Positions 4,933 through 23,244 of a DNA stretch of 64,000 nucleotides are shown here, in pieces (position 1 is the stretch's first letter; each line of letters begins with the position of its first letter). The translations under genes were made by a program, and so were the position numbers. Below the pieces are notes generated by a model. It was not told the origin of the DNA, did not search any database, and saw only the letters and a program-made list of their open reading frames with translations. This stretch comes from Flavobacteriales bacterium (GTDB lineage Bacteria; Bacteroidota; Bacteroidia; Flavobacteriales_F; PHOS-HE28): assembly GCA_046329105.1 (NCBI GenBank), contig JAXLVH010000004.1, forward strand, positions 29,938-93,937, given 5' to 3'.

Positions 4933-5011
4933 GGTATCGGCGATGTTCGGTCCTTGGCTACGGCAAACGTTCGGCGATCCGGATGGTGCCGAAACCCCAT
5001 GAATGGGGGGC

Positions 5012-7174: not shown

Positions 7175-7187
7175 TGGATGCTGTTGA

Positions 7188-8822
7188 TCAATGGATGACC
7201 AAACGGGCCGAACGAGCGCTCCGTGGATCGCTCACCTTCACCGTGTAAAGACCTTTCGCCAGCATCCCGCCTTCCGCCAGTTGCACGGTCCCACTGGCAT
7301 CGGCACGCCCGGTCGTGTTGATCACGGTCCTTCCTGCGGCATCGATCACCGCCAGCGAGAAGGTGGAACCGGGCGATCCAGTGCGGATGCTGAACGATCC
7401 CGCTGCCGGATTGGGGAACACATCGAGCGCGGGCAGGCCCCCAGCGGCTTCCTCGATCCCGATCGCGATGCCGAAGCCCTCGGCCACACAAAGCGAATAA
7501 CCGGCATCATCGTAGGGCGTGTTGGAGTAGCCATTGTACACCCGCACGTAGTAGGTGTTCCCCGGCACCATCCCGTTCAAGGGGAGTTGCACAGGATCAC
7601 CATCGAAACCATTGGCGCAGGCCGTGGAGACCAAGGCGCCGCAAACGCCCGCGTACAATTCCATGACGGCGCCGAACTGCGTGCTGTTCGGGAACACGCC
7701 GATGGTCATCAGCGACTGGGTGGCGACGAAGGAGTACCAGACGTCGTCGGAGGCATCACCGAGCCCATCGGCACAACCCGGTTGTATGGTGGAGGCCGAT
7801 GCGCAGGTGGGCGAGAAGGCCACGGGAGCGCAGGTCGCAGAGACCGGCACCGTGATGGCTCCCGCACAGTCGTCGTTCGCCGGTTGATGTGAGCCGACCG
7901 GATCGGCTTTCACATGCAGGGTGTAGGTCCCGGGCGCATCGCCGTTGGTCACGGCATAGTAGTAGGTGCCCGCCGGCAACGCCGGATAGCACAACGTGGG
8001 CCGGTTCCCCGTGCAGTCGGTGATGTTCTCATAGCCCGCGTAGCGGCGCTGGGCCAGATCTGCCGGGCAGGTGAAGTACAGTGCGCGGAAGTAGTACGGG
8101 AAGAAGGCCGCGCTCCCGCAGAGGTCGATCGTCACATCGGCCGCCTCGCTCAAGGTGAAGGCATGCCACACCGAAGGCAGCGGCAGGCCCTCGGTGTTCT
8201 GCGCGTTGGTGGAGTTGCCCGTGAAGGTGATGGTAGTGCCCATGGGCAGGGCTTGCATCGACGCGTTCGTGCACAGATCGTTCGCGGGAACATTCACCAG
8301 AGCAAGGTCCTGAACGCACAGCTCGAAGTCGCCTGCATCGCCGTAGTCAGGATTGGAGAAGACACGCAGGAAGTAGGTGGTGGAAGGCGTGAGGTACTCA
8401 GCCGTAGGGCCGGAAGGCTGGATCCGGCAGGCCACTTCGGTGCCACTGCATGCACCTTCGAGGAGCACGTAGGCCCAATCCGTCATGTTGGCCTCCGGTG
8501 TCAACGTGATGATCACGGTATCGGCCGTGCCGGTGGTGAACGTGTACCATACATCGGGTTCCGTGGATCCGGGATCATCGCAGGATGGCACGATGCCGTC
8601 CATGGTGGCGCCTGCGTTCGTCCCGTTCAAAGCCCCGGTGCAGTCGGCACCAAGCGTGATCGGTGCGGCATTGGCGCAATCGTCGTTGGCGGGTGGACCA
8701 CCGCGCTCAGGGCTGCTTCCCGAAGGCCGTTCGATCGGCGTCCCATAGGGAGACGGGAGAGGTCGTTGCGCCAGAAGTGTCAGGCTGCAGGAGATCAGGA
8801 GGAGGGCGATGAGGTGGCGCAT
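7188..8822 (-). CDS. T9SS cargo protein with PPC-like repeats (paralog of 3307-4932)
   Basis: 544 aa. Same repeat architecture (PANDDCANAAPITLGADCTG..., DVWYTF..., YFLRVFSN...) and C-terminal T9SS CTD (DVFPNPAAGSFSIRT...RLVIH). Confidence 0.75.
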   Translation of the reverse strand: MRHLIALLLISCSLTLLAQRPLPSPYGTPIERPSGSSPERGGPPANDDCANAAPITLGADCTGALNGTNAGATMDGIVPSCDDPGSTEPDVWYTFTTGTADTVIITLTPEANMTDWAYVLLEGACSGTEVACRIQPSGPTAEYLTPSTTYFLRVFSNPDYGDAGDFELCVQDLALVNVPANDLCTNASMQALPMGTTITFTGNSTNAQNTEGLPLPSVWHAFTLSEAADVTIDLCGSAAFFPYYFRALYFTCPADLAQRRYAGYENITDCTGNRPTLCYPALPAGTYYYAVTNGDAPGTYTLHVKADPVGSHQPANDDCAGAITVPVSATCAPVAFSPTCASASTIQPGCADGLGDASDDVWYSFVATQSLMTIGVFPNSTQFGAVMELYAGVCGALVSTACANGFDGDPVQLPLNGMVPGNTYYVRVYNGYSNTPYDDAGYSLCVAEGFGIAIGIEEAAGGLPALDVFPNPAAGSFSIRTGSPGSTFSLAVIDAAGRTVINTTGRADASGTVQLAEGGMLAKGLYTVKVSDPRSARSARLVIH

Positions 8823-8963
8823 GTGTCGGGACTATGGGCTGCAAACGTGCTCATGCCCGCACTGCACGGAAACCCCATGAATGGGGGGCCACCCAATCAT
8901 GGGGTTTTCCCTGAGGTCACAGCGCCCGATCCTTGCATCGGACGATCATTCCTTCCATCACGC

Positions 8964-10964
8964 ATGCGGATCCCGCGCACCCTTGCCATCATCGGATGCC
9001 TCCTCATGGTCCACGCAGCGTTCAGCGGAACGATTGACAGCGTGGAGGCGCGCTTGCGCACCGAGGGCCGCACCACAACGCGCGTGGACCTGCTCATCCG
9101 CAAGGCCATGCAGCACATCAATGACCCGGAGTTGGACGTGAGCCCCATTTGGAAGGAAGCGCATCAGTTGGCCGAAGAGCTGAAGTATGAACGCGGCCAG
9201 GCATACGCGCCCATGGGGCCGGCCGTTGAGCGCTGGCATGCTGGCGAACATGCCGCTGCGATCGACAGCATGAAGACGTGCATCGAACGCCTCGACGCCC
9301 TCGGCGTGGACCAGGAGTTTGTTTCGCCATTGGGATGGCTGCGCGAGGTGTACAGTTCCGCCGGCATGCAACAGGAGCGACTGCGTTACTACACCCAAGC
9401 CGTGGATCGTTACCGGAAGGGACCGCTGCGCATGAGCCTGGGCACCAGCTACCATGCGCTTGCCGGATACTACACGCGCATCCGGCAGTACGGTGCGGCC
9501 ATCGAACACTACATCCGCGCCCGCGAGTGCTTTCCAACGCGGCCGGATATCGCATGCAACGAGACCATGGTGATCGGCTGGGCCTACGAGCAATGGGGCA
9601 ATCCCGCGCGTGCGATACCCTTCATCCAGGAGGCGCTGCCATGCCTGACCGCACAGGGCGATACCGGCTTGCTGGCGGACTGCCACATGCGCCTGGCCAC
9701 CGATCGGTTGGCCTTGGGCGATACGCTGGGTGCGCTGCGCGATCTTGAGCGCTCGAGGTCCCTCGTGGCCAACTTGGACAGTTCCAACCCGTTGTTCCGG
9801 TCCAAGTACATTCCCATGCTCGTACAACTGGGCCGGATCGAAGAGGCGGGGATCCAGTATGCGCGGATGATCCAGGAATGCCAGCGCGAAGAGGTGCCAT
9901 TGAACTCGTTCAATGGCGCTTGCGAGCCGGACTACTGCGGGTACATCCTCTACAGCGCGACAGGCCGCCTCGCACAAGCCGATAGCAGTTTGCGCGAGGC
10001 GCTGACCAAGGCGCTTCGGATCAACGATCTGCCACTGGTGCTCAAGTACCGCAAGGCCTTGATGGAACGGCTTTGGACGTCCGGTGATGCGGCCGGATCG
10101 GCGCGGGAGGCCGCGTTGTATGTGCGCATGAACGACTCCCTGCAAGCCGTGGCCAACGCCGATGCCGTGGCGGCTTACGAAGGGCTGGTGAAGGAACGGG
10201 AGAGCGCCCTGGAGATCCAGCGCCAACAAGCGCGGGTGAAGCAACAACGCGTGGTGTTGCTCGGCATTGCCTTCGTGCTGCTGCTCCTTGCGGCGCTCGC
10301 CTGGTCCGTGTACAAGGGCAAGAAGCGCTCGGATGAATTGCTGCTCAACATCCTTCCCGCGGAGGTCGCCAAGGAACTGAAGGCGACCGGGGCCAGCGCC
10401 GCGCGCCACATCGAACAGGCCACCATCCTCTTCACCGATTTCAAAGGCTTCACCGAGGCGAGCGAGCTGCTGACACCGCAGGAGCTGGTGGAAGAGCTGG
10501 ACACCTGCTTCAAGGCCTTCGATGCCATCATCACCGCGCGTGGCATCGAGAAGATCAAGACCATCGGTGATGCGTACATGGCGGCCGGTGGCCTGCCCCG
10601 CAAAGTGGCCAGCGGCGTGGGGGATGTGGTGCAGGCCGCGCTCGACATGCAGGACTTCATGCTGAGGCGGAAGACCGAACGCACCGCGCTGGGGAGGCCC
10701 GCGTTCGACATGCGGGTTGGCGTGCATACCGGCCCCGTGGTCGCGGGCATCGTCGGCGTGAAGAAGTTCCAGTACGACATCTGGGGCGATACGGTGAACA
10801 CCGCCAGCCGCATGGAATCCTCCGGCGAAGTGGGCCGCGTGAACATCAGCGGAAGCACCTACCGCGAGATCGCCGCGCAGCCCGGCTTGGTCTTCACCCC
10901 GCGCGGAAAGGTGCAGGCCAAGGGCAAAGGGGAACTGGAGATGTACTTTGTCCAACGCAATTGA
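8964..10964 (+). CDS. Membrane-anchored class III adenylate cyclase with periplasmic TPR-like sensor domain
   Basis: Start chosen at MRIPRTLAIIGCLLMVHAAFS (signal peptide). The upstream part of ORF 7914-10964 overlaps the opposite-strand gene. Order is TPR-like region, coiled coil, TM helix (VVLLGIAFVLLLLAALAW), cyclase domain with FTDFKGFT, EKIKTIGDAYM, QYDIWGDTVNTASRME. Lys and Asp at purine-specifying positions suggest ATP. Confidence 0.8.
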   Translation: MRIPRTLAIIGCLLMVHAAFSGTIDSVEARLRTEGRTTTRVDLLIRKAMQHINDPELDVSPIWKEAHQLAEELKYERGQAYAPMGPAVERWHAGEHAAAIDSMKTCIERLDALGVDQEFVSPLGWLREVYSSAGMQQERLRYYTQAVDRYRKGPLRMSLGTSYHALAGYYTRIRQYGAAIEHYIRARECFPTRPDIACNETMVIGWAYEQWGNPARAIPFIQEALPCLTAQGDTGLLADCHMRLATDRLALGDTLGALRDLERSRSLVANLDSSNPLFRSKYIPMLVQLGRIEEAGIQYARMIQECQREEVPLNSFNGACEPDYCGYILYSATGRLAQADSSLREALTKALRINDLPLVLKYRKALMERLWTSGDAAGSAREAALYVRMNDSLQAVANADAVAAYEGLVKERESALEIQRQQARVKQQRVVLLGIAFVLLLLAALAWSVYKGKKRSDELLLNILPAEVAKELKATGASAARHIEQATILFTDFKGFTEASELLTPQELVEELDTCFKAFDAIITARGIEKIKTIGDAYMAAGGLPRKVASGVGDVVQAALDMQDFMLRRKTERTALGRPAFDMRVGVHTGPVVAGIVGVKKFQYDIWGDTVNTASRMESSGEVGRVNISGSTYREIAAQPGLVFTPRGKVQAKGKGELEMYFVQRN

Positions 10965-10970
10965 ACACGC

Positions 10971-11360
10971 ATGCATAAGGCGCTGATCCTGTTCACGCTC
11001 CTCTTGATGGTGGCACCGTGTGCGGCCCAGTCCGGTGCGGATGCCGGTCCCGTGAAGGACATCACACCGCAGGAACTCTTCGCCGGGCTGCCCAGGATGC
11101 ACGTCATCGATGTGAACGAAGCGGACAACTATGCCTTCGCCCATGTGCCCGGGGCGAAGCTCCTGGACTACGACGCCATCACACCAGAAGTTCTTCCGGC
11201 CGACAAGTCGGGCGCGCTGGTGTTCTACTGCTGGAGCCCGGAATGCCCCGCTGCCGGCATGGCCGCTGAAAGCGCCGTGAAGCTGGGATACACCGATGTG
11301 CGCTGCATGCACGCGGGCATCACCGGCTGGCAGGATGCGGGGTTGCCCACCGAGCCATGA
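10971..11360 (+). CDS. Periplasmic single-domain rhodanese (sulfurtransferase-like)
   Basis: 129 aa. Signal peptide. Rhodanese fold with active-site Cys loop (FYCWSPECP). Confidence 0.7.
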   Translation: MHKALILFTLLLMVAPCAAQSGADAGPVKDITPQELFAGLPRMHVIDVNEADNYAFAHVPGAKLLDYDAITPEVLPADKSGALVFYCWSPECPAAGMAAESAVKLGYTDVRCMHAGITGWQDAGLPTEP

Positions 11361-11762
11361 GGACAACGGAGCTCGTGGCTCCATCATCGGCTCCAGGTAA
11401 ATACGCTCCTCTTCTCCGGCGGCGGGTAGCTCGCGCTCTGCCATTTCCCGGTCGTTTCCCCCGAGCTGGCAGTGCCGAAGCCTACGCACCAGATGCTCTG
11501 GATGACGGTTCTTGCAGGGTCGGTGTTGGCCCTTGCTTCGGCTATTCTGCCGGCTTCCCAGCTCCGCTGACCGTACATCAGGCGGTTGCCGGTGCTGGGC
11601 TCCGTCGGTTGCGCATTGGCCTTCAACGCTGCCCTGGTGCTCCGGTACAAGCAGCCACGCTTCGGCATCCATCACGATGGCCTGCTCCAGCGCTGCTTGG
11701 TGCTCCGTGGGTTTGCCTTCACCATCTGGGGCCGTGTCACGAACAAGGCGTAATCAACCGAC

Positions 11763-13724
11763 TCAAAGCGGGATGGCCAGATGGATCGTGGTCCCCTTTC
11801 CCGGGGAGCAATCCGTTCGCAGTTCCGCCTTCACCTCCTCAGCCCGCGCGCGCATGTTGCGCAAGCCGTTCCCGCCCATCGCCCCGGCGCTGTTCGTTCT
11901 CGGCAGTCCCGTCCCGTTATCGCTGATGGTCATGCGCAAGCGGTTGTGATTGTGGTCGATCACGGCGGCCACTTCGGTGGCCTGTGCGTGCTTGGCCGCA
12001 TTGTTCACCGCTTCCTTGAAGATGAGGTAGAGGTTCTTCTTCACCTCCACGGAAAGTTCACGCGCCAGCACGTTCTCCGGAGCGTTGAAGTGGAAGGCGA
12101 TGCCCTTCGGCTCCAGCACCGAGGTCCCGAACTCGCGCATACGGCCGATCAGGTCGATCACCGAATCCTTGCCCGGATCGACACTCCAAACGATGTCGCT
12201 CATGTCGCGCATGAGGCGCTGGCTGCGCTCACTGATCTTCTCCATCGAAGCCGCCGCATCCGTATCGCCGCTGGCCTCGGCGCGCTTCTTCACCACGTTG
12301 CTCAGGATGCTGATGCTGCTCAGTGTGCCGCCGATGTCATCGTGCAGGTCGCGGCTCAGGCTGGAGCGCAGTTGTTCCAAGTGGATGCGGCGTTTCAAGC
12401 GCGCGCGATTGATGAGCAGTGCCGCTATCAACGTGATGAAACCGAGGAGCATCAGGAACAGGAACCGTTGCCAGCGGTTCTCGGACGCGACCATCTCGAA
12501 CCTCAACCGTTCGCGTTCGTTCACTGTTGCCACGGAGTCGCGCAAGTGTGACATCCTGGAGGTTTCCTCCAATCGCCGCATGCGCTCGTCAAGATGCCAT
12601 TCTTGGATCGTCTTCTCACTCGTTCTGAGCGCTTGCTGATAATGCAGCGCCGTCTTCAGATCGCCCTGCATCTCCGCGATCCGGGCAAGGCCCTCATAGA
12701 TCGCCGGACCGTTAACCGCGCAGTTCGCGCATGTGTCCAAACGCCTTTCGCAATCGCGGAAAGCCCGCCAGGCCTCGTTCGTTGAGCCTCTTGAGAGCAG
12801 CATCTGCGCGAAGGGCAGAAGGTCCGCGGTCCGGTTCCAGTTGGCCCATGGGAACTCATGGTCCATCATGTGGTGGTATTGCACAAGTGCGCGCCGCAGC
12901 GTGTCCAGCGTGATGGACGTATCGTTGACCGCAGCCTGGGTCATGAGCCGGAACCGAAGGCGCCTTCGAATGCCGGAGGTCCATGGGTCGTTAGGGACGA
13001 GCTGATCTGCTAGGGCGCTGTCCAGCTCCAAGCGGCGCACATACAGCTCTGTGGAATCCCATGCGCCCGATAAACTGTGCGCCACGGCCATTTCCACATG
13101 CAACTTATACCGCTGGTCCAACGTTCGGGCCAGGTGCAATGCACGCCGCAGATCTGGAAGCGCCTGCTGGGGATCCAGGTACATCTCGCTCCTGAAGCTG
13201 CCCAGCCGGTACGCCGTGTAGAAAGCACCCAAGGTGTCATGGTCCGCCAGAAACCGGTCGACGAGGGGTTCGTACAGGGACATGGTCGAGTCCAACTGCC
13301 CCCTTTGGTAGGCCGCTGCACCATGGAAGTAGGTGGACCAATCCGCCAGCACTGGATCGCTGTCCGGCCCGATGAGGCGGTCGAAGCGTGCGATGAATTC
13401 CGGCGTGGTGCGCTGTAGCGCGTAGCGATAGTGTTGGAATGCTCGCCCTGTGGGAATTGGAGCAGCGGCAGCCACGGCAGGGTCATCGAAACGAGTGAGC
13501 GCGCTGGCACAAAAAAGAGTGTCCTTCTTCAATGCGCGTAACCGCATATGCTCAACCAGCGTGGCGAGCCCTGTCGTGTCCGCGTTGGCCTTCGCATCGC
13601 TGGTCCGCTCAATTGAAAGGTCGCATGAGGAAGACATGCCCATCAGGGCGATGCAGACCATCACGTTTCGGCGCTTCACAGTTCGAATTAAGCCGGATCG
13701 TCGGGACCGTGATGACCTTCTCAC
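11763..13724 (-). CDS. Sensor histidine kinase (NarX/HisKA_3 type) with periplasmic TPR-like sensor
   Basis: H-box LSRDLHDDIGGTLSSISIL. HATPase N/G boxes (EAVNNAAKHA, DNGTGL, GNGLRNMRARAE). TM helix then kinase core. Start ATG overlaps the response regulator (RR) stop (ATGA). Confidence 0.8.
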   Translation of the reverse strand: MRRSSRSRRSGLIRTVKRRNVMVCIALMGMSSSCDLSIERTSDAKANADTTGLATLVEHMRLRALKKDTLFCASALTRFDDPAVAAAAPIPTGRAFQHYRYALQRTTPEFIARFDRLIGPDSDPVLADWSTYFHGAAAYQRGQLDSTMSLYEPLVDRFLADHDTLGAFYTAYRLGSFRSEMYLDPQQALPDLRRALHLARTLDQRYKLHVEMAVAHSLSGAWDSTELYVRRLELDSALADQLVPNDPWTSGIRRRLRFRLMTQAAVNDTSITLDTLRRALVQYHHMMDHEFPWANWNRTADLLPFAQMLLSRGSTNEAWRAFRDCERRLDTCANCAVNGPAIYEGLARIAEMQGDLKTALHYQQALRTSEKTIQEWHLDERMRRLEETSRMSHLRDSVATVNERERLRFEMVASENRWQRFLFLMLLGFITLIAALLINRARLKRRIHLEQLRSSLSRDLHDDIGGTLSSISILSNVVKKRAEASGDTDAAASMEKISERSQRLMRDMSDIVWSVDPGKDSVIDLIGRMREFGTSVLEPKGIAFHFNAPENVLARELSVEVKKNLYLIFKEAVNNAAKHAQATEVAAVIDHNHNRLRMTISDNGTGLPRTNSAGAMGGNGLRNMRARAEEVKAELRTDCSPGKGTTIHLAIPL

Positions 13725-14353
13725 ACCACCCGGTTCTGCAAGGCCTTCGCCACCGCCTCGCTCTTGCTGTTCACGTGCAGCTTGGCGTAGATGTTCTTGA
13801 TGTGGAAGCGCAGGGTCTCCACGCCGATGTCCAATTGCGCGGCGGCCATTTTGTAGCTGTGGCCACGCACCAGCAGCGAGAGTACATCATGCTCCCGCGC
13901 GGTGAGCTTCTGCAGGTCGTCGCTCTTCTTGAAGGGCTGCGCGAAGAGCGTGAGCACCTTGCGCGCGATGCTCGGGGTCATGGGTGCGCCGCCACCCATG
14001 GCCTCGCGGATGCCCTCCAGGATCTTCTCGGGCGCGGTCTGCTTCAGCAGGTAGCCGCTGGCGCCGTGGCAGATGGCCTGGAACACGTTCTCGTTGTCCT
14101 CCATCACGGTGAACATGAGCACCATCACCCCGCTGCCCGCCGCACGGATGGCGCGCAAGCCCTGCAACCCGTTCTCCACCGGCATGTCGATGTCCATGAG
14201 CACCACGTCCGGGTGGTGGTAGGCCACATGGCGTTCGGCCCGCTCCGCGTTGGTGTAGTGCGCGACCAGGCGGATGTCATCCGAATCCTTTATCAGTTCG
14301 GCCAGGCTTTCGGCCAGGTCGTTGTTGTCCTCGAAGAGCAGTACGCGGATCAT
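13721..14353 (-). CDS. NarL/LuxR-family response regulator
   Basis: REC domain (MIRVLLFEDNND...VVLMDIDMP) plus C-terminal LuxR HTH (LTAREHDVLSLLVRGHSYKMAAAQLDIGVETLRFHIKNIYAKL). ORF table start at 14386. MIRVLL start preferred. Confidence 0.85.
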   Translation of the reverse strand: MIRVLLFEDNNDLAESLAELIKDSDDIRLVAHYTNAERAERHVAYHHPDVVLMDIDMPVENGLQGLRAIRAAGSGVMVLMFTVMEDNENVFQAICHGASGYLLKQTAPEKILEGIREAMGGGAPMTPSIARKVLTLFAQPFKKSDDLQKLTAREHDVLSLLVRGHSYKMAAAQLDIGVETLRFHIKNIYAKLHVNSKSEAVAKALQNRVV

Positions 14354-14444
14354 GGTGGATACAAAGAACGGATGGGTGCTGGTCACGACGCACCCCCCAG
14401 TTCGTGGGGGACGCTAACTTCACGCCACGCCGGAAACTTGCCTT

Positions 14445-15737
14445 ATGCAAGCCGGGGTCCTGCGCATGGAGAAAGACGGCACCATCCGGGAGCCGACCGC
14501 GACCGAGACGGAAGTGCTCGCCGTGCATGACCAGTTCTGGCAGTGCTATGCGCGTCGCGACCTCGATGGGCGCTTCGCTGTGGCGGCGGATGACATCACC
14601 TTCTTCGGTACCGCGCTGCACGAGCGCGCCGTTGGCAAAGCGCAATACCGGGCGTTCAATGAGAAGGGCGTGGAACAGTATCCGCATGCGTTCACCATCG
14701 AGTACATCTGGAAGGAAGTGCGTATTTGGCACGAAACCGCCTGGGTGGAGGGCGATACGTACTGGACCATGGGCAGTGGGCCCGAAGCCACGCGTGACCT
14801 CTTGCGGCAGACCACCATCCTGAAGCGCGTTGCCGGCAATTGGCTGGTGACGCACGTACATGGCAGCGACCCCGACTACCGGCTGCGCGAGGGCGAGTAC
14901 ATGACCTACGGCGACATCCACACCCGCAACAAGGACCTGGAGCGGGAGGTGATGCAGCGCACCGAGGAACTGCGCGCCGAGAAGAAGCGCAGCGATGCCC
15001 TGCTGCTGAACATCCTGCCGGAGGAAGTGGCCGAAGAGTTGAAGGCCAAGGGCGAAGCCGACGCCAAGCTCATCGACCAGGTCACCATCCTCTTCACCGA
15101 CTTCAAGGGGTTCACGGCCATGAGCGAGCATATGGCTCCTCGTGACCTGGTACGCGACCTGAACGAGTGCTTCAGCGCCTTCGACCGCATCTGCGAAAAG
15201 CACAACATAGAGAAGATCAAGACCATCGGTGATGCATACATGGCCGTCGGCGGCTTGCCGATGGCCAACACCACCCATGCCGTGGATGCGATCAACGCCG
15301 CGCTGGAAATTCGCGACTTCATTGCTGAAGGCAGAGCGAAGAAGGCCGCGGCGGGTCTGCCCTGGTTCGAGATCCGCATCGGCGTGCACTCGGGACCGGT
15401 GGTGGCGGGGATCGTGGGCGTGAAGAAGTTCCAGTACGACATCTGGGGCGATACGGTGAACACCGCCAGCCGGATGGAGAGCAGCGGCGAAGTGGGACAG
15501 GTGAACATCAGTGAGGCGACGTATGCGTTGGTGAATGACGCGAGGAAGGTGAATGGCGAATGGTCAATAGTGAATGGGGGATCCACCCATTCACCAACTC
15601 CCGATCACCATTCGCCCGCAACGGCCCATTCACCATTCACCAACTCCCATTCACCCGCATTCGCATTCACCCCGCGCGGAAAAGTGCAGGCGAAGGGCAA
15701 GGGGGAACTGGAGATGTACTTCGTGAGCAGGGCATGA
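14445..15737 (+). CDS. Cytoplasmic SnoaL/NTF2-like domain - coiled coil - class III adenylate cyclase
   Basis: 430 aa. N-terminal SnoaL-like fold. Cyclase motifs identical to neighbours. C-terminal low-complexity insert (NGEWSIVNGGSTHSPTPDHHSPATAHSPFTNSHSPAFA) encoded by a palindromic repeat. Confidence 0.8.
   Translation: MQAGVLRMEKDGTIREPTATETEVLAVHDQFWQCYARRDLDGRFAVAADDITFFGTALHERAVGKAQYRAFNEKGVEQYPHAFTIEYIWKEVRIWHETAWVEGDTYWTMGSGPEATRDLLRQTTILKRVAGNWLVTHVHGSDPDYRLREGEYMTYGDIHTRNKDLEREVMQRTEELRAEKKRSDALLLNILPEEVAEELKAKGEADAKLIDQVTILFTDFKGFTAMSEHMAPRDLVRDLNECFSAFDRICEKHNIEKIKTIGDAYMAVGGLPMANTTHAVDAINAALEIRDFIAEGRAKKAAAGLPWFEIRIGVHSGPVVAGIVGVKKFQYDIWGDTVNTASRMESSGEVGQVNISEATYALVNDARKVNGEWSIVNGGSTHSPTPDHHSPATAHSPFTNSHSPAFAFTPRGKVQAKGKGELEMYFVSRA
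15549..15671. repeat. ~120-bp palindromic (hairpin-forming) element inserted in frame in cyclase gene, copy 1
   Basis: GTGAATGGCGAATGGTCAATAGTGAATGGGGGATCCACCCATTCACC...CCATTCGCC...CCCATTCACC. GAATGG-rich left arm and CCATTC-rich right arm. Perfect core palindrome GTGAATGGGGGATCCACCCATTCAC. Confidence 0.8.
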
Positions 15738-17815
15738 GATATCCGCTTCCGATCCTCATGGTGCTGGCCCTGGTCGTGAACGTACACGGCCAGGACCGGA
15801 TCCTTGATTCGCTGCGGAACGCGCTTGACACCACGCGGCAGGACACCGTGCAGCTACGGACCCTGGTGTCGATCTCGCAGATCGCCTCCCTATCGAGCCG
15901 GGACACCGCCTACGCGCGGCCGATGGCGCGCATGATCGCAAAGCTGGAGCAGGACCCGCACCCGTCCGTCAAGGCCGTGGCCGAGGAAGCGAAGTTCCAT
16001 TGGCTGCTCTGGCGCGGTGCAATGCGACTGCGTGTTTCCGACTATCGCGGCGCCGTGCGTCTCTACAATGAGGCTGGACGACTGGCCACGGAGCGCGCCG
16101 ACACCGCACGCATCCTGGACTACGAAGTGGCCATGGGTGACCTCTATGGCCGCATCAATGATACCGTTAACGGCCTGCGATGGGGCTATCGTGCGTTCGA
16201 ACACGCGCTGATGTTGGGCGACAGCGCGTTCGCGGTGCGGATCCTTCTCGGGCTGGGCGAGTCCGACACCACGCATGCCCGCTTCCGCTCGTCGCTTGAC
16301 TTCATTGATGCGTATGCTTCGACGGCCCGATGGCAGCACGAACCCTCCTACCACATGTTCCGCGGACGGCTCCTGCAAACACATGGAGAACACGCGCAGG
16401 CCATCGCCGAAATGGAACTGGCCGACAGTCTTTTCCAGGGCACCGGGGATAGGAGGAACGCTCTGAACGCATGGTTCCTGGGCGGGGCGTACCAAAGCGC
16501 TGGTCGTTCTAGCGATGCCATAGCCGCGTTCCATAATTCCCTCAAAGCCTCCAAGCACTTCGGGATCAGAGGATGGCACGCCGGCTGCGCGCTGGACCTC
16601 GGAAAGGAACTGCGGAATACGGGTGATCCGGCAGGTGCTGAAGCGGCATGGCGGGATGCCTTGGAACAGGCACGTCTCGGGAATTTCCCGGATCACCTGA
16701 GCAACGCGCTGGATCATTTGAAGGACTTGTACACTGAACAACGACGCTATCGCGAAGCATTGGAGCTCACCGCGGAATGGCTCGCGCTGAAGGACAGTTC
16801 GAACGCCGAGGAAGCGCGCAGGGAATTGCTCCAACTCGAGTTCGGAGCGGAACAACGCGCGGACAGTTTGCAGTTCGCGCTCGAACGCGAGGAGGCATCG
16901 CGACGGCTCGCTAAGGAGCGCACGCAACGGAAGGTGCTTATCGGCTTTGGTGCTTTCGCCCTCGTCTTCGCCGCCGTGGACTACCGCCGCCGCCGCCGCA
17001 TCAAGAAGGAACATGCACGCAGCGAGGCCCTGCTGCTCAACATCCTGCCGCAGGAAGTCGCCACCGAACTGAAGGCGAAAGGCCACGCCGACGCGAAGCA
17101 CTTCGAAAAGGTCACCATCCTCTTCACCGATTTCAAAGGATTCACCTCGGTGAGTGAACAGCTATCTCCTGCGGAACTGGTCGAGGAGCTGAACACCTGC
17201 TTCAAGGCGTTCGACGGGATCATCACCGCACGTGGCATTGAGAAGATCAAGACCATTGGTGATGCCTACATGTGCGCGGGCGGACTGCCCACACCCAATA
17301 CCACGCACGCCACCGATGTGATCAACGCCGCATTCGAAATGCGTGACTTCATCGCTGAAGGCAAAGCGCACAAGATCGCGGCAAGCCTCCCCTACTTCGA
17401 GATCAGGATCGGTATCCACACCGGTCCTGTGGTGGCGGGCATCGTGGGCGTGAAGAAGTTCCAGTACGACATCTGGGGCGATACGGTGAACACGGCCAGC
17501 CGCATGGAGAGCAGTGGTGAGGTGGGGCAAGTGAACATCAGCGAGGCGACGTATGCGTTGGTGAAGGATGTGAAGAAGGTGAGGGAGGTGAATGGCGAAT
17601 GGTCAATAGTGAATGGGGGATCCACCCATTCACCAACTCCCGATCACCATTCGCCCGCAACGGCCCATTCACCATTCACCAACTCCCATTCACCCGCATT
17701 CGCATTCACTCCGCGCGGAAAAGTGCAGGCCAAGGGCAAGGGGGAGATGGAGATGTACTTCGTGCAGAGGTCATCGGGAACGTCCGACAGCGCACCGACA
17801 TCTACTGGTACATGA
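15734..17815 (+). CDS. Membrane-anchored class III adenylate cyclase with periplasmic TPR-like sensor (tandem paralog 1)
   Basis: Start MRYPLPILMVLALVVNVHGQ overlaps the upstream stop (ATGA). TPR-like region, TM (VLIGFGAFALVFAAV), cyclase domain. Same palindromic in-frame insert near the C-terminus. Confidence 0.8.
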   Translation: MRYPLPILMVLALVVNVHGQDRILDSLRNALDTTRQDTVQLRTLVSISQIASLSSRDTAYARPMARMIAKLEQDPHPSVKAVAEEAKFHWLLWRGAMRLRVSDYRGAVRLYNEAGRLATERADTARILDYEVAMGDLYGRINDTVNGLRWGYRAFEHALMLGDSAFAVRILLGLGESDTTHARFRSSLDFIDAYASTARWQHEPSYHMFRGRLLQTHGEHAQAIAEMELADSLFQGTGDRRNALNAWFLGGAYQSAGRSSDAIAAFHNSLKASKHFGIRGWHAGCALDLGKELRNTGDPAGAEAAWRDALEQARLGNFPDHLSNALDHLKDLYTEQRRYREALELTAEWLALKDSSNAEEARRELLQLEFGAEQRADSLQFALEREEASRRLAKERTQRKVLIGFGAFALVFAAVDYRRRRRIKKEHARSEALLLNILPQEVATELKAKGHADAKHFEKVTILFTDFKGFTSVSEQLSPAELVEELNTCFKAFDGIITARGIEKIKTIGDAYMCAGGLPTPNTTHATDVINAAFEMRDFIAEGKAHKIAASLPYFEIRIGIHTGPVVAGIVGVKKFQYDIWGDTVNTASRMESSGEVGQVNISEATYALVKDVKKVREVNGEWSIVNGGSTHSPTPDHHSPATAHSPFTNSHSPAFAFTPRGKVQAKGKGEMEMYFVQRSSGTSDSAPTSTGT
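17588..17710. repeat. Palindromic in-frame element, copy 2
   Basis: Near-identical DNA to copy 1, at the same position in the paralogous cyclase. Confidence 0.8.
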
Positions 17816-19848
17816 ACCTCCGTCGCACGGCCCTTTTCATATTGCTCTTGGCCGCGCAAGCCCACGGCCAGGACCGTGCGCTCGACTCCCTCAGGAGCGC
17901 GCTCGACACCACCAGGCAGGACACCACGCAGCTTCGCACCCTGGTGAGGTTCTCGCAGATCGCCTCCCTCTCCAGCCCCGACACGGTGTACGCCCGGTTC
18001 ATGGCCAGGTTGATCGGCAAGCTGGAACAGGATCCGGCTGCCTCGGTAAGGGCGGTCGCGGAGGAAGCGAAGTTCAATTGGCTCATCTGGAAGGGCCAGA
18101 TGCGGCGGCGTGTATCGGACTATCGCGGCGCCGTGCGCATGTTCGAAGAGGCTGGTCGACTGGCCGAAGCGCGGGCCGACACCGCTCGCCTCCTGGACTA
18201 CGAGATGGAACTGGGTGACCTCTACGGGCGGATCAACGATACGATCACCGGCTTGCGACATGGCTATCGCGCGATGGAATACGCCATTGCGTTGGGCGAT
18301 AGCGCGCTGGCGGCGCGGATCCTTTTCGGTGTGGCCCGCTTCGATACTTCACGCGTCCGCCTCCTTTCATCTCTGGAATACGTCGATGCGTACGCGAAGA
18401 AGGCCCGATGGGAGAACAACGCTGGCTACTACGCCGCTCGTGGATGGATGCTGCAAGCTCACGGTGAACATGACCAGGCCATCGCCAACCTGGAACGGGC
18501 CGATAGCCTGTTGTCGGATCCCGATAGCCGGATGATCGCCCTGTACGCCTGGTTCCTTGGCGAAGCATATCTGAGCGTTGGTCGATCGGATGACGCCATT
18601 GCATCGTTCCGGCGTGCGCTCTCCGCTGCTGAACGCCATGGGATCAATGGATGGCACGCAGGCTGCGCCTTGGCATTGGGTTCCGAACTGAAGAGAACAG
18701 GTGACCAAGCCGGGGCCGAAGCGGCATGGTTGGATGCCTTGGCGCACGCGCGCCTCGGGAATTTCCCGGACCACAAGCTCACCGCGCTGGGCCACTTGAA
18801 AGACCTGTACACGGATCAACACCGCTATCGAGAGGCTTTGGAGACCACGGCACAATGGCTGGTGCTGAAGGACAGCTCGAACGTGGATGAAGCACGCAAG
18901 GACCTGCTACGTCTTGAATTTGGCACCGAGCAACGGGCGGACAGTCTGCAATTTGCACTTGAGCGTCAGGAAGCCTCGCGGGTTGTCGCACAGGAACGTA
19001 CCCGTCGCAACATTTTCCTTTTCTCTGGGATCGGCTTGCTGGCCTTCGGAGTGGTCGTATTCCGCCAGCGCAACCGGATCAGCAAGGCGCGCAAGCGCAG
19101 CGACGAATTGCTGTTGAACATCCTGCCGGAGGAAGTCGCGGAGGAATTGAAGGACACCGGTGCCGCACAAGCAAAACACTTCGATACGGCCACCATCCTC
19201 TTCACCGACTTCAAGGGTTTTACCCAGTTGAGCGAGAAGGTGACACCCGCCGAACTGGTCGCGGAACTGAACACCTGCTTCAAGGAGTTCGATCTGCTCA
19301 TGACCAAGTACCGCATCGAGAAGATCAAGACCATCGGCGACGCCTACATGGCCGCCGGTGGATTGCCCGATCCGCAGCATGGCTCACCGGCCGACGTAGT
19401 GCGCGCAGCCTTGGAGATGCAGGACTTCATGAAGCGCCATAAGGCCGAACGCGAAGCCGCTGGCAAGCCGTTCTTCGAGATGCGCGTGGGCATCCACACC
19501 GGCCCCGTAGTCGCCGGCATTGTGGGCGTGAAGAAATTCCAGTACGACATCTGGGGCGATACGGTGAACACGGCCAGCCGCATGGAGAGCAGCGGCGAGG
19601 TAGGGCAGGTCAATATCAGCGAGGCGACCTATGCGTTGGTGAAGGATGCGAAGAAGGTGAATGGCGAATGGTCAATAGTGAATGGGGGATCCACCCATTC
19701 ACCAACTCCCATTCACCATTCGCCCGCAACGGCCCATTCACCATTCACCAACTCCCATTCACCCGCATTCGTATTCACCCCGCGCGGCAAGGTGCAGGCC
19801 AAGGGCAAGGGGGAACTGGAGATGTATTTCGTGGAGCGCAAGGCTTGA
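17812..19848 (+). CDS. Membrane-anchored class III adenylate cyclase with periplasmic TPR-like sensor (tandem paralog 2)
   Basis: Start MNLRRTALFILLLAAQAHGQ overlaps the upstream stop (ATGA). Same architecture and the same in-frame insert. Confidence 0.8.
   Translation: MNLRRTALFILLLAAQAHGQDRALDSLRSALDTTRQDTTQLRTLVRFSQIASLSSPDTVYARFMARLIGKLEQDPAASVRAVAEEAKFNWLIWKGQMRRRVSDYRGAVRMFEEAGRLAEARADTARLLDYEMELGDLYGRINDTITGLRHGYRAMEYAIALGDSALAARILFGVARFDTSRVRLLSSLEYVDAYAKKARWENNAGYYAARGWMLQAHGEHDQAIANLERADSLLSDPDSRMIALYAWFLGEAYLSVGRSDDAIASFRRALSAAERHGINGWHAGCALALGSELKRTGDQAGAEAAWLDALAHARLGNFPDHKLTALGHLKDLYTDQHRYREALETTAQWLVLKDSSNVDEARKDLLRLEFGTEQRADSLQFALERQEASRVVAQERTRRNIFLFSGIGLLAFGVVVFRQRNRISKARKRSDELLLNILPEEVAEELKDTGAAQAKHFDTATILFTDFKGFTQLSEKVTPAELVAELNTCFKEFDLLMTKYRIEKIKTIGDAYMAAGGLPDPQHGSPADVVRAALEMQDFMKRHKAEREAAGKPFFEMRVGIHTGPVVAGIVGVKKFQYDIWGDTVNTASRMESSGEVGQVNISEATYALVKDAKKVNGEWSIVNGGSTHSPTPIHHSPATAHSPFTNSHSPAFVFTPRGKVQAKGKGELEMYFVERKA
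19657..19779. repeat. Palindromic in-frame element, copy 3
   Basis: Near-identical DNA to copies 1 and 2 (one GAT->ATT type difference). Lies just upstream of menA. Confidence 0.8.
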
Positions 19849-19883
19849 AGACGGTCGTGCGCGTTGGTGTTCCTTTGCCCGGC

Positions 19884-20774
19884 ATGAAGCACTGGCTCCA
19901 CGCCTTCCGCCTGCGCACACTTCCGCTCGCGGTGAGCAGCATTCTGGTTGGAAGTGCACTCGCCTCTTTCCACGGTGCGTTCCATTGGCCCGTGCTGGCG
20001 TTTGCCCTGCTGACCGCGGTGTTGTTGCAGATCCTCAGCAACCTGGCCAACGACCTGGGCGACCACCAGCACGGTACGGACAACGTGGAGCGCATCGGCC
20101 CGCAACGTGCGGTGCAGAGCGGGGCGATCGCCCCGGACATCATGAAGCGCGGCATGCTGGTGTGCGGATCCCTGGCCTTCCTGAGTGGCTGCGCATTGAT
20201 CACGGTGGCGCTCGGCTTCACATGGGGCGCCCTGATCTTCCTGCTGCTCGGTCTGCTCGCCATCGGTGCCGCGGTGAAGTACACCTTCGGGAAGGATCCG
20301 TACGGCTACGCCGGGTATGGCGACGCGAGTGTGTTCCTGTTTTTCGGTATTGTCGGAGTATGTGGAACCTTCTGCCTCCACACCCGCGTGTTCTTCCCGG
20401 CCGTGCTGCTGCCGGCGGTGGCCTTCGGGCTGTTGAGCACGGGTGTGCTCAACGTGAACAACATGCGCGACATCGCCAACGATGCGGCCAGTGGAAAGCG
20501 CACGCTGGTGGTGCGCATGGGCGGTGCCAACGCCAGGGTGTACCACACCTTGCTCGTGCTGGGTGGGATCGCCGGACTTGTCGGCTTCGCGGTGTTCACC
20601 CGGGATCGGTCAACCTTGCTGCCTTTGCTTGCCGCACCGGTTTTTCTCTGGCATCTTCGCCAGGTCTGGACGAACACGGAACCCCGGTTGTTGGATCCCC
20701 AGTTGAAAGTACTGGCCTTGGGCACCTTCCTCACCGCGCTGCTGTTCGCCGCAGGTCTCATCTTCGCGGCATGA
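19884..20774 (+). CDS. menA: 1,4-dihydroxy-2-naphthoate polyprenyltransferase
   Basis: ~296 aa polytopic UbiA-family protein (MKHWLHAFRLRTLPLAVSSILVGSAL...NDLGDHQHGTDN...). The upstream part of ORF 19668 overlaps the cyclase 3' end and is rejected. Confidence 0.8.
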   Translation: MKHWLHAFRLRTLPLAVSSILVGSALASFHGAFHWPVLAFALLTAVLLQILSNLANDLGDHQHGTDNVERIGPQRAVQSGAIAPDIMKRGMLVCGSLAFLSGCALITVALGFTWGALIFLLLGLLAIGAAVKYTFGKDPYGYAGYGDASVFLFFGIVGVCGTFCLHTRVFFPAVLLPAVAFGLLSTGVLNVNNMRDIANDAASGKRTLVVRMGGANARVYHTLLVLGGIAGLVGFAVFTRDRSTLLPLLAAPVFLWHLRQVWTNTEPRLLDPQLKVLALGTFLTALLFAAGLIFAA

Positions 20775-21826
20775 TGCAGGCAGCTTGGAAAGAGGTCCAT
20801 CTTACACCCCGGTTCCCGTTGGGCACCTCGAAAGGCACCATCACCTCGCGCACGCTGTGGTACCTGATCGCTTGGGATCCGGCTCGGCCGGGGATCAAGG
20901 GCATTGGCGAGGCCGCGCTGTTCCCCGGTCATAGCAAGGAGTTCCCCGCCGATGTGCGTGTGAAGCTGATGGAGCTGTGCACGAACACGTCCGACTGGAC
21001 GGACCGGCTGACCGGCGATCTGGTGGATCGGCCCAGTGTGCGGTTCGCCGTGGAGCAATGCCTGAAGGACCTCGACGCGGGTGGCAGCAAGGTGCTCTTC
21101 CCATCGGACTTCACGCTGGGGCGGAAGGGCGTGCCCATCAACGGGCTCGTATGGATGGGCGACAAGGCGAGGATGCGGGCGGACATCCGATCGCGCATCG
21201 ACACCGGTTTTTCCACCGTGAAGATGAAGATCGGCGCCCTTGCCATTGAAGAGGAGCTCGCGTTGTTGGCGGATGTGCGGCGTGAGTTCGGCGCCGGGAA
21301 CATCACCCTGCGGGTGGACGCGAACGGTGCATTCGACGCGCATACTGCACCTGAGGTATTGAAGCGCTTGGCGGACCTGCGGGTGGAGAGTATCGAGCAG
21401 CCGGTACCGCCGGGCTTGTATGAGCTGATGGCCGAACTGTGCGTCGCATCGCCACTGCCGATCGCGCTGGACGAGGACCTGATCGGCCTGAACACGGTAC
21501 AGGCCAAGCGCGACCTGCTGGACAACGTGCGGCCGCAGCGCATCGTGATCAAGCCCGGCCTGGTGGGCGGATGGACAGCGGCCGAGGAGTGGATCGCACT
21601 GGCCGATGCGCGCGGCATCGGCTGGTGGGTCACCAGTGCGCTGGAGAGCAACATCGGGCTGAACGCCATCGCCCAATGGGCGGCCATGATCGGCGTGAAA
21701 GGCACACAGGGCCTGGGCACCGGGAGTGTGTTCCTGGACAACATCCCCGCGCCGCTCGAGGTGGAGCGTGGTGCCCTGCACTACCGTCCCGAGCGGCCAT
21801 GGGACCTGTCCCGCATCATCGACTGA
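20771..21826 (+). CDS. menC: o-succinylbenzoate synthase (enolase superfamily)
   Basis: 351 aa. ATG overlaps the menA stop (GCATGATG). MR/MLE-type fold motifs (KMKIG, IEQP, LDEDL..KPGLVGG). Confidence 0.75.
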   Translation: MMQAAWKEVHLTPRFPLGTSKGTITSRTLWYLIAWDPARPGIKGIGEAALFPGHSKEFPADVRVKLMELCTNTSDWTDRLTGDLVDRPSVRFAVEQCLKDLDAGGSKVLFPSDFTLGRKGVPINGLVWMGDKARMRADIRSRIDTGFSTVKMKIGALAIEEELALLADVRREFGAGNITLRVDANGAFDAHTAPEVLKRLADLRVESIEQPVPPGLYELMAELCVASPLPIALDEDLIGLNTVQAKRDLLDNVRPQRIVIKPGLVGGWTAAEEWIALADARGIGWWVTSALESNIGLNAIAQWAAMIGVKGTQGLGTGSVFLDNIPAPLEVERGALHYRPERPWDLSRIID

Positions 21827-21832
21827 CCCGGG

Positions 21833-22945
21833 TTGCCCACCGTGATGTCGACCGGACCGGACACTTTCAACAGGCTCACCGTGGATGGGATCACCCGGCG
21901 CGGCCCGGAGATGCTGCGCTGGGCGGATGAGCTCGTGGAACGCCACGGCTCGGCATCCTGGGCTCTGGACCTGCGGGCCACATTGGCGAGGCTCATGGCC
22001 GATGGTTCGATCGACGTGCGCACGAGCGGGACCACAGGCGCACCGCGCGCTTTCCGATCCGGCATCCAGGATATCCTGGCGAGCGTTGCTCTGACACGGG
22101 ATGCGTTCGGCCTCGTTGAAGGGGACCGCGCGCTTCTCTGCGTGCCGTCCGGATTCGTGGCCGGGAAAATGATGCTGGCCCGGGCCATGGTGCTGGGCCT
22201 CGACCTGCACGTGATCGATCCCCAAGGGGGTGTACTGAACAACCTGCGCACAACGGATCGTTTCCGGTTCGCGGCCATGATCCCGCTGCAGTTGCATACC
22301 GCGTTGATGCACGATCGGGCCCGCATCGACGAACAGTTCGATACCATCCTGTTGGGAGGCGGCCCGGTGAGCGACGGCCTGGTGGCCATGCTCCGGGGTA
22401 TGCGTACACGCATCGTGCTGGGCTATGCCAGCACGGAGACGCTCACGCATGTGGCGTTGCGTCCGTTGAACGGCCCGGATGCCTCGGACGTGTACACCGC
22501 GCAACGCGATGTCACCTTCGCATCAGGCGGGCAAGGATGCCTGGTGGTGAGGACCCCGCATCTTTCGGTGAAGGAGCATGTGACCAACGACGCCGTCGAG
22601 GTGTTGGACGAACGGCACATGCGCTGGCTGGGCCGGCTCGACCATGTGATCCTGAGTGGTGGCCGCAAGATCCATCCCGAACGGCTGGAGGCCACTACGG
22701 AAGGTATTATTCCGATCCCGCACTTCTTCGCCGCACTGCCGGACGAACGTTTGGGTCAGGCGGTAGTGCTTGTGCTGGAAACCGGGGCTCCCGGCAGCGC
22801 ACCATCGATGGAACTGATGGAACGGATCAATGCCGCGCTGCACGAGCACGACCGCCCACGCCGGGTGATCACGCTGCGCAGCTTCATCAGAACGGGCACA
22901 GGAAAAGTGGACCGCAACAGCACATTGGCGTTGGCGGTGGGCTGA
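21833..22945 (+). CDS. menE: o-succinylbenzoate--CoA ligase (short AMP-binding enzyme)
   Basis: 370 aa. AMP-binding P-loop TSGTTGAPR, YASTE, C-terminal GKVDR. Position after menC. Confidence 0.7.
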   Translation: MPTVMSTGPDTFNRLTVDGITRRGPEMLRWADELVERHGSASWALDLRATLARLMADGSIDVRTSGTTGAPRAFRSGIQDILASVALTRDAFGLVEGDRALLCVPSGFVAGKMMLARAMVLGLDLHVIDPQGGVLNNLRTTDRFRFAAMIPLQLHTALMHDRARIDEQFDTILLGGGPVSDGLVAMLRGMRTRIVLGYASTETLTHVALRPLNGPDASDVYTAQRDVTFASGGQGCLVVRTPHLSVKEHVTNDAVEVLDERHMRWLGRLDHVILSGGRKIHPERLEATTEGIIPIPHFFAALPDERLGQAVVLVLETGAPGSAPSMELMERINAALHEHDRPRRVITLRSFIRTGTGKVDRNSTLALAVG

Positions 22946-22960
22946 GCAGGGCTCGTGATC

Positions 22961-23107: not shown

Positions 23108-23244
23108 GGTTCACTTCGGGTGTTGTTCCGCCGGATCCGGACGCGTTGCCGGAGCCGATGGATGGTTGGTTCGGAGCCAATGTAGGCGCGTATTCGACCG
23201 GAACGGTGCATGTGTGCCGGCAGTTGTCAACAATGACTGTGCGT

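Follow-up and report, generated by a model that had tools for sequence, protein, structure and literature searches.

The subject of this report is a cluster of putative cyclic AMP (cAMP) signalling genes at positions 8964–19848 of a 64,000-nucleotide stretch of DNA from a Flavobacteriales bacterium (contig JAXLVH010000004.1 of assembly GCA_046329105.1; the whole stretch is referred to as the window, and coordinates are those of the window unless another contig is named). The cluster comprises four genes for class III adenylate cyclases (cyc1 to cyc4), a gene for a small rhodanese and a gene pair for a sensor histidine kinase (HK) and a response regulator (RR), and all seven genes were found at the coordinates and on the strands given in a previous annotation made from the DNA letters (the original prediction). 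Two features of the locus are unusual, and both were absent from that annotation, namely the reassortment of sensor and catalytic modules and a hairpin of repeated heptamers that lies in frame within three of the cyclase genes.

The first cyclase gene, cyc1 (8964–10964, plus strand), encodes a receptor-type class III adenylate cyclase with Pfam matches to tetratricopeptide repeats (TPR) and to Guanylate_cyc (E 2e-54), which is built from a signal-like N-terminus, a TPR ectodomain, a transmembrane (TM) segment at ~430–448, a cyclase-transducer element (CTE) and a catalytic domain, without the loop insert that is carried by its three paralogues. It is followed on the same strand by the rhodanese gene (10971–11360). 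The minus strand carries the HK gene (11763–13724; Pfam HisKA_3 and HATPase_c; TM segment at 421–439) and the gene of the NarL/FixJ-type RR (13721–14386; Pfam Response_reg and GerE helix-turn-helix). The remaining cyclase genes lie on the plus strand, where cyc2 (14445–15737) encodes a cytosolic class III adenylate cyclase with an NTF2-like SnoaL_3 domain (Pfam, E 1.5e-12), a CTE and a Guanylate_cyc domain, and cyc3 (15734–17815) and cyc4 (17812–19848) each encode a receptor-type TPR-TM adenylate cyclase (Pfam TPR and Guanylate_cyc).

The starts of cyc3 and cyc4 overlap the stops of cyc2 and cyc3, respectively (ATGA), and both overlaps, already noted in the original prediction, were read directly in the sequence. 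The cyc4 stop in turn overlaps the TTG start codon of menA (TTGA, menA start 19845), menA and menC overlap by 4 nt, and a gap of 6 nt separates menC from menE (19845–22945); the three cyclase genes from cyc2 to cyc4 probably share a transcript with menA, menC and menE, to which they would be coupled in translation. The succession of cyclase genes and menA/C/E is also present in the contigs L001 and L003. In L001 (a metagenome contig of 131.8 kb) and two shorter contigs, the gene order is cyc1′, X, HK′, RR, cyc2, cyc3, cyc4′, menA and onwards, with X at the position of the rhodanese gene.

Reassortment of sensor and catalytic modules

The window and L001 share 96% nucleotide identity over 13721–17763 (RR, cyc2 and cyc3) and again over 19096–24019 (the catalytic domain of cyc4 and the men genes). 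The only stretch within 13721–24019 that has no nucleotide match to L001 is the one encoding the cyc4 ectodomain and TM segment (17763–19096, plus strand), a variable sensor cassette that lies between the conserved 3′ end of the catalytic domain of cyc3 and the CTE of cyc4 itself. To the left of the RR stop, nucleotide matches to L001 are limited to the core of the kinase (72%) and the catalytic domain of cyc1 (82%). At the protein level the similarity between cyc1 and cyc1′ of L001 is confined to the TM segment and the catalytic part (70%), and the HK, which adjoins an RR gene with 96% nucleotide identity to that of L001, is 38% identical in amino acids to the HK of L001.

Mosaics of the same kind are found among individual homologues. 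P0002 and P0003 are 92–100% identical to cyc4 over most of the ectodomain, apart from a block of 40 residues in P0003 with 85%, and 50–77% identical in most of the catalytic domain; for P0002 alone, the values are 97–100% for the sensor and 50–75% for the catalytic domain. P0005 and P0029 represent the reverse mosaic, in which the catalytic domain is close to that of cyc4 and the sensor is divergent. The breakpoints fall at the CTE and at the 3′ end of the catalytic domain, both of which are conserved.

A second kind of exchange is seen between the paralogues of the locus. The 3′ ends of cyc2, cyc3 and cyc4 are 87–100% identical (up to 1.0 at third codon positions), compared with 45–83% over the first 140 codons of the catalytic domain, and identity at third codon positions is ~1.0 in the insert, compared with 0.2–0.7 elsewhere. 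The insert region of cyc3 is 100% identical to that of its paralogue cyc2, yet only 75–80% identical to that of its orthologue in L001, and this closer relation to the paralogue than to the orthologue is therefore a signature of gene conversion. As judged from these alignments, close relatives differ by the reassortment of sensor and catalytic modules, and paralogues have undergone gene conversion at their 3′ ends. The highly conserved CTE and C-terminal catalytic blocks would serve as junctions for the exchange or conversion, between paralogues, of sensor cassettes and of the 3′ ends of catalytic domains. In the comparison with nearly identical relatives, the exchange of sensor and output modules is seen on a within-species time scale, a clear natural example of the rewiring of signalling proteins.

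A heptamer hairpin in a loop of the catalytic domain

The second unusual feature consists of ~40 extra residues in cyc2, cyc3 and cyc4 (VNGEWSIVNGGSTHSPTP(D/I)HHSPATAHSPFTNSHSP), which are flanked by ...NISEATYALVKD and FTFTPRGKVQAKGKGE... and are disordered in the AlphaFold2 (AF2) model (predicted local distance difference test, pLDDT, <50). At this position the mammalian adenylate cyclase (AC) AC9 has a turn of four residues, whereas three of the four cyclases of the locus carry the disordered 40-aa insert. In all three genes the underlying DNA has four units similar to GTGAATG and, after them, about ten similar to CATTCAC, and it folds as a long imperfect hairpin, with z-scores from −3.6 (cyc2) to −6.1 (cyc4). 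The hairpin lies in frame at 15548–15656 of cyc2 (plus strand), where it encodes most of the insert (VNGEWSIVNGGSTHSPTPDHHSPATAHSPFTNSHSP), at 17587–17695 of cyc3 (plus strand) in a copy identical to that of cyc2, and at 19656–19764 of cyc4 (plus strand), where the pLDDT lies below 50 at residues 623–648. According to Tandem Repeats Finder, these cyclase inserts are the only period-7 repeat of more than about two copies in the 64 kb. In a perfect (GTGAATG)n array, TGA would occur in each of the frames; where such a repeat has TGG TGA, the coding arm has TGG TCA ATA, hence it has been purged of stop codons.

Inserts at the same loop are present in 59 of 107 scorable homologues and fall into type A (29), type B (~15), type C (6), type D (3) and others (6), the remaining 48 being without insert. 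Type B has the peptide SQLSVVG...TTDNQQLTT, and its DNA, seen in one example, consists of GGTTGTC/GACAACC heptamers that form a hairpin; type C is a short GTCGACCC/GGGTCGAC hairpin, and type D reads PQPATRQP. The insert peptides are chemically unrelated, and types A, B and C are alike in their loop position and hairpin potential. A search with the 40-aa insert peptide returned two candidates and one cyclase fragment and was uninformative. At the DNA level, GGTGAAT/ATTCACC arrays occur in many phyla, often as inverted pairs, and the copies inspected by eye were mostly intergenic; among the matches listed in the genome-collection scan with the type-A arm, none of these arrays adjoins a cyclase, and the type of repeat is thus a generic one. 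In the window, L001 and a further cyclase-bearing contig, L124, period-7 arrays are found almost solely at the homologous cyclase loop, the exception being an intergenic GTGTGAA/TCACACC heptamer hairpin directly after a cyclase stop codon (L124, 3191–3259). No dispersed copies of the element, target-site duplications or associated transposase were found in these three sequences.

The 7-nt unit is shared with known bacterial heptanucleotide repeats, to which the cyanobacterial STRR also belong, but the known arrays are essentially intergenic, whereas the array described here lies within the sequence for a catalytic domain, in frame and free of stops. Heptanucleotide tandem repeats are a documented class in bacteria, at least as the work of Mrazek et al. 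(2007) is summarised in PMC4679880, and TAACTGA heptamer repeats have been described in Beggiatoaceae, Cyanobacteria and Bacteroidetes, while repeat units that are not a multiple of three are disfavoured in coding DNA (PMC4679880). Closer in its consequences is the behaviour of Rickettsia palindromic elements (RPEs) and other MITEs (miniature transposable elements with inverted repeats), which insert in-frame in protein-coding genes (PMC10969869; PMC1779305). As with RPEs and in-frame MITEs, hairpin repeat DNA is here translated as an extra surface loop and the host protein is not destroyed, and the RPE-like trait of an inverted-repeat structure that is translated in frame within continuous open reading frames (ORFs) is present. 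The element differs from RPEs and MITEs in that it consists of tandem heptamers and their complement and in that, in the window, L001 and L124, it is almost confined to a single homologous loop in a single family of paralogues. It is a rare example of repeat DNA of a normally intergenic kind inside the catalytic domain of an enzyme, which raises the question of whether it is a passenger or a regulator.

Most likely, the insert is tolerated passenger repeat DNA in a permissive turn that has been spread by gene conversion, and not a part of the protein with a function of its own. A heptamer hairpin of a normally intergenic type would have come to lie in a permissive surface turn, would have been purged of stop codons and would then have passed between paralogues. 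Alternatively, the hairpin could be functional as a nucleic acid. As an intracistronic mRNA stabiliser or processing site, it would set the relative expression of genes in operons that have overlapping genes and no intergenic space; as a slippage switch, a ±7-nt frameshift would drop the last two β-strands and so turn individual cyclases off. Such a role would fit the finding that peptides as unrelated as those of types A, B and C have only the hairpin potential and the loop in common, the almost exclusive occurrence of period-7 arrays in cyclase loops of the window, L001 and L124, the nucleotide identity of the insert, which is above that of the flanking coding sequence, and the ~10 CCATTCA units carried by cyc4′ of L001. 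A slippage switch in particular would fit P0096, which is frameshifted inside the insert, but this frameshift could be an assembly error, and other inserts differ between strains yet stay in frame. Slippage should moreover be slow, given that the units are degenerate and that there are only two perfect tandem heptamer units in the inserts of the window. Further points against a nucleic-acid role are the 48 of 107 homologues without insert, cyc1 among them, and an insert distribution that does not follow operon position in L124 or in another multi-cyclase contig, L125. The absence of a U-tract and of a terminator also speaks against a nucleic-acid role, and a role of the insert as an intrinsic terminator was rejected. 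Folding of nine type-A inserts with RNAalifold gave conserved pairs with essentially no covariation; this result lends the nucleic-acid role no weight, although it neither supports nor refutes selection on structure. Taken together, a function of the hairpin as nucleic acid appears rather unlikely.

The idea can be extended to this Flavobacteriales cyclase family, so that a surface turn close to the C-terminus of the catalytic domain would be a dedicated landing or retention site for hairpin heptamers that act as nucleic acid (intracistronic mRNA stabilisers or processing sites, or hot spots of recombination or slippage) and would, together with the CTE and the C-terminal blocks, drive a cassette-like reassortment of periplasmic TPR sensors among tandem receptor cyclases and HisKA_3 kinases. 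We regard this extension as speculative and give it little credence; if true, it would amount to a built-in mechanism for diversifying the sensory repertoire of a bacterium.

Sensor relatedness and predicted cAMP output

In a hydropathy scan, cyc1 showed an N-terminal hydrophobic segment and one TM segment, and cyc4 and the HK showed one TM segment each; cyc3 stayed below the threshold, yet has the same layout by eye, and the scan found no TM or signal-like segment in cyc2 or the RR. The AF2 model of cyc4 comprises an all-helical TPR solenoid at residues 22–355 (pLDDT >90), a stalk helix at 358–403 and a TM helix at 408–437. Foldseek matches the cyc4 ectodomain to the peptide-binding TPR of Pins/LGN (TM-score 0.57, normalised to the target), and like the LGN/Pins superhelices (PDB 4a1s, 6hc2) the predicted ectodomain is a contiguous TPR solenoid, but the identity is 16% and the cyc4 domain is bacterial and would be periplasmic. 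The LGN/Pins-like fold of the model suggests that an extended peptide may be bound in the groove of the cyc4 ectodomain. In the Pfam search, the TPR matches of cyc1, cyc3 and cyc4 were mostly under the gathering score.

The HK probably starts at the ATG at 13661, as does P0121, and has a helical ectodomain of ~380 aa with an N-terminus (MGMSSSC) that would resemble a lipobox. The H-box (DLHDD) and the N and G boxes of HATPase_c are visible in the translation, and the RR has the Asp of DIDMP together with the Thr and Lys. The annotation of a NarX/NarL-type pair is borne out by the Pfam domains (HisKA_3 and HATPase_c in the kinase, REC and GerE in the regulator), which are the same as in NarX/NarL systems. 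The sensor is different, since NarX has a P-box and a four-helix sensor, whereas the HK here has a fast-evolving helical-repeat ectodomain of a family that is also found in a few cyclases.

According to the original prediction, the kinase and three cyclases share the same periplasmic TPR-like sensor, and a common extracellular cue would be routed to both the phosphorelay and cAMP. What the proteins do share is a layout, with a signal peptide, a helical-repeat ectodomain of ~340 aa, a stalk helix and one TM segment, and a TPR-like sensor is supported for cyc1, cyc3 and cyc4 by Pfam, AF2 and Foldseek; the HK ectodomain gave no Pfam TPR match and is connected to the cyc4 type by profile homology through bridging sequences. 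Close similarity is limited to cyc3 and cyc4, whose ectodomains are 69% identical over 379 aa, and all other pairs gave TPR-level matches that are out of register or no match at all (pairwise BLAST and phmmer; BLAST E≥0.006 in a database of four sequences only, hence not significant). In profile–profile comparison with hhalign, the cyc1 and cyc4 types are related, with a collinear alignment at 99% probability (E 1e-18), but a profile made from the HK type only reached 45% against the cyc4 type, and the comparison of the HK with the cyc1 ectodomain was not significant. The value for the HK and the cyc4 type rose to 98% (E 8e-13) when the bridging cyclases P0088 and P0019 were included, the ectodomains of which are 26–27% identical to that of the HK. 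A word-indexed search for relatives of the HK ectodomain returned two sequences and an exhaustive HMMER search over 1.84 billion cluster representatives returned 15; of the 17 HK-type sequences that were scanned (these 15 together with P0122 and P0019), 12 match HisKA_3, 13 match HATPase_c and two are cyclases. From these comparisons we conclude that the ectodomains appear to follow a common receptor design and to be members of one ancient superfamily, with shuffling between the two kinds of output, kinase and cyclase.

A single cue for the HK and the three receptor cyclases would be in keeping with the shared layout seen in hydropathy and in the AF2 model, with the distant collinear homology (directly between the cyc1 and cyc4 types and, when bridged, between the HK and cyc4), with the fusion of HK-type ectodomains to cyclases elsewhere (P0088, E 1.3e-13, and P0019) and with the gene order kept in L001. 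However, the ectodomains are divergent beyond the cyc3/cyc4 pair, for which reason a single common cue is unlikely, and neither the HK-only profile nor the HK–cyc1 comparison speaks for one sensor. Moreover, in L001 the gene order is unchanged but cyc1, the HK and cyc4 each carry a sensor other than that of the window, so that these three sensors have been replaced independently while RR, cyc2 and cyc3 remained 96% identical, which would be unexpected for co-adapted sensors. A cue common to kinase and cyclases is therefore very unlikely, and the different sensors in an unchanged gene order argue for sensor specificities that diversify individually.

The catalytic output is more uniform. All four cyclases match the class III catalytic profile (PF00211, Guanylate_cyc; E 2e-54 to 5e-57) and contain the motifs EKIKTIGDAYM and FQYDIWGDTVNTASRMES, in agreement with the annotation of four class III adenylate cyclases. 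The metal-binding Asp residues (in FTD and IGD) and the Asn and Arg of VNTASRMES are invariant in the four proteins and in an alignment of 72 sequences, and the adenine-specifying pair, i.e., the Lys of EKIKTIGD and the Asp of QYDIWGD, is present in all four. In alignments with mammalian AC8 and AC9, the Lys, Asp, Asn and Arg line up with the C2 domain and the two metal Asp with C1. Guanylate cyclases have Glu and Cys or Ser in place of the substrate-specifying Lys and Asp. A specificity for GTP was rejected, and the earlier prediction of ATP use is upheld by the complete set of catalytic residues and by the Lys/Asp pair. The closest solved structures are mammalian AC8, AC9, AC5 and GC-C and mycobacterial Cya and Rv1625c (PDB sequence search and Foldseek), with a sequence E-value of ~1e-59 to AC8/AC9 and a Foldseek TM-score of 0.7–0.8 for the catalytic domain. 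A helix (RSDELLLNILPEEVAEELK), which we take to be the CTE, precedes the catalytic domain in all four cyclases; in cyc2 it matches the C-terminus of Pfam HNOBA (residues 163–199) and aligns to the AC8 sequence NENMLRNILPSHVA. The CTE is reportedly a conserved helix of ~19 aa directly N-terminal of class IIIa and IIIb catalytic domains. The fold, the metal Asp, the Lys/Asp and Asn/Arg pairs and the CTE helix (RSDELLLNILPEEVA) are the same as in mammalian membrane ACs and mycobacterial Rv1625c and Cya (PDB 4p2f, 7yzk, 5o5k), whereas the membrane part differs, with a single TM segment and a large periplasmic TPR ectodomain in place of the six-TM bundle of these class IIIa cyclases. As the metal Asp, the Lys/Asp pair and the Asn/Arg pair are all kept in one chain, the four cyclases are predicted from their sequences to act as class IIIa homodimers that convert ATP to cAMP.

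The 40-aa disordered insertion directly before the last two β-strands could nevertheless mean that cyc2, cyc3 and cyc4 are catalytically dead or regulatory pseudo-enzymes and that cyc1 alone is active. This is very unlikely, since strict conservation extends to all six residues for catalysis and specificity and to the C-terminal strands, the ORFs are intact with an insert that has been purged of stop codons, and insert-bearing genes are kept across many genomes.

Genomic setting and proposed signalling scheme

The locus is one instance of a large, lineage-specific expansion of cyclases in Flavobacteriales. A search returned 1,321 homologues at E≤1e-20, and most of those with a name come from metagenome-assembled genomes (MAGs) of Flavobacteriales; of two related Flavobacteriales MAG contigs, L124 has seven tandem TPR-TM cyclases (1115–16255) and L125 has four (3774–12049) and one more, with 4-nt overlaps. 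By its sequence relationships, the locus would be a further member of a receptor-type class IIIa adenylate cyclase family known from databases, with a HisKA_3 kinase of the same layout. The original prediction had described the cluster as an island, a description that is contradicted by uniform G+C content, core flanks and a gene order that recurs in a relative with ~96% nucleotide identity. An origin as a horizontally acquired cAMP island or as cargo of a mobile element is extremely unlikely: an rve-family integrase/transposase ORF (589–1557) lies near the left end of the window and the locus is strongly unlike L001 in its left part, which comprises cyc1, the rhodanese gene, the HK gene and, upstream, cargo genes of the type IX secretion system (T9SS), but the G+C content is flat at 0.60–0.65, the same in the locus as in its flanks, core genes lie on both sides, the gene order is the same in L001–L003, homologues are essentially confined to Flavobacteriales MAGs, and the variability is accounted for by recombination among resident paralogues.

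The findings can be combined in an explanation of receptor cyclases with cues of their own, modular recombination and a passenger insert, which we consider probable as a whole. In this uncultured Flavobacteriales bacterium of high G+C content, the genes would form a signalling cluster on the chromosome that is, as a whole, apparently inherited vertically. cyc1, cyc3 and cyc4 would be single-pass receptor adenylate cyclases, in which a signal sequence exports a TPR superhelix of ~340 aa and a stalk helix and one TM segment link this superhelix to the CTE and the class IIIa catalytic domain; cyc2 would be a cytosolic version with an NTF2/SnoaL-like input domain, and the divergently transcribed HisKA_3 kinase of the same receptor layout would signal to the NarL-type regulator. 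Most likely, every receptor responds to a separate cue in the periplasm, a peptide or a protein, and the cyclases would contribute to one cAMP pool. The cAMP effectors would be encoded elsewhere in the genome; among the ~45 ORFs of the 64-kb window, there is neither a cyclic nucleotide-binding nor a Crp domain, as the original prediction had also stated, nor a further cyclase besides the four.

Several points weigh against this explanation. The operon structure is deduced from gene overlaps and from the absence of terminator-like sites, and the scan for terminators and σ70 promoters gave nothing above shuffled controls, with Bacteroidota promoters lying outside its coverage. Hydropathy is the only basis for signal-peptide cleavage and periplasmic location. 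Some cyclase copies may be impaired, in view of the insert and of an AF2 confidence that is low for parts of the catalytic domain modelled as a monomer. Finally, the passenger status of the hairpin is the default reading, and the restriction of heptamer arrays within the 64 kb to three cyclases and the occurrence of different hairpin types at one loop could mean function or targeted insertion.

To our knowledge, cAMP signalling in Bacteroidota is almost unstudied, and a literature search on TPR-type class III cyclases in Bacteroidetes and Flavobacteriales found nothing relevant. Receptor-type adenylate cyclases with a periplasmic TPR domain are nevertheless very numerous in this lineage, often encoded by tandem, overlapping genes, and the locus provides concrete examples in the form of three receptor cyclases and a kinase that share a layout but differ in their ectodomains, together with a cytosolic cyclase with an NTF2 domain.

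The rhodanese is a small protein of 129 aa (Pfam PF00581, E 2.5e-11) with a signal-like N-terminal segment and a candidate catalytic Cys in FYCWSPEC. Its designation as a secreted rhodanese agrees with the Pfam match and the N-terminus, but it is not a conserved member of the locus and was rejected as an integral component of the module, being replaced in the syntenic L001 by an unrelated 144-aa membrane protein with several TM segments. Directly downstream of the rhodanese gene, the window has a remnant of the gene for this L001 protein (11442–11750, plus strand; tblastn, 42% identity over 102 aa, E 2e-20) with an internal in-frame stop.

Upstream of the locus lie T9SS cargo genes, directly downstream lie menA, menC and menE, and the rest of the window includes the core genes trpS, gatC, rpsB, tsf, pyrH and frr. 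A 49-nt repeat with a hairpin (CCCCATGAATGGGG) is found at 4963–5011 and 8841–8889 in short gaps beside the T9SS cargo genes; its copies lie a short way upstream of two start codons on the minus strand (4932 and 8822), and the second copy is also upstream of cyc1. Rfam gave no match anywhere in the window. Arrays of a ~55-nt repeat (TGTCACGCTGAGC...GCCGAAGCGC), likewise without Rfam match, are present at 23903–24207 and 26135–26477, and a 160-nt direct repeat (24010–24169 and 26022–26181) is 91% identical between its copies. Together they flank a gene of lower G+C content (0.56; 24293–25978), the product of which has a C-terminus that resembles a T9SS sorting tail. Further downstream, two MbnP-like genes are followed by two tandem genes for di-haem cytochrome c peroxidases (MauG/MbnH-like) at 29860–33776. 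Between pyrH and frr there is a toxin gene of the AbiEii nucleotidyltransferase family (59503–60195), and the unannotated ORF upstream of it (58983–59501) encodes a possible antitoxin. Three very large proteins with PKD, GEVED, Sortilin or M43-peptidase domains are encoded at 40098–53355, and their genes share a near-identical 3′ segment of ~300 nt (at 44115, 48269 and 53056; 62–88% identity), which possibly encodes a common sorting tail.

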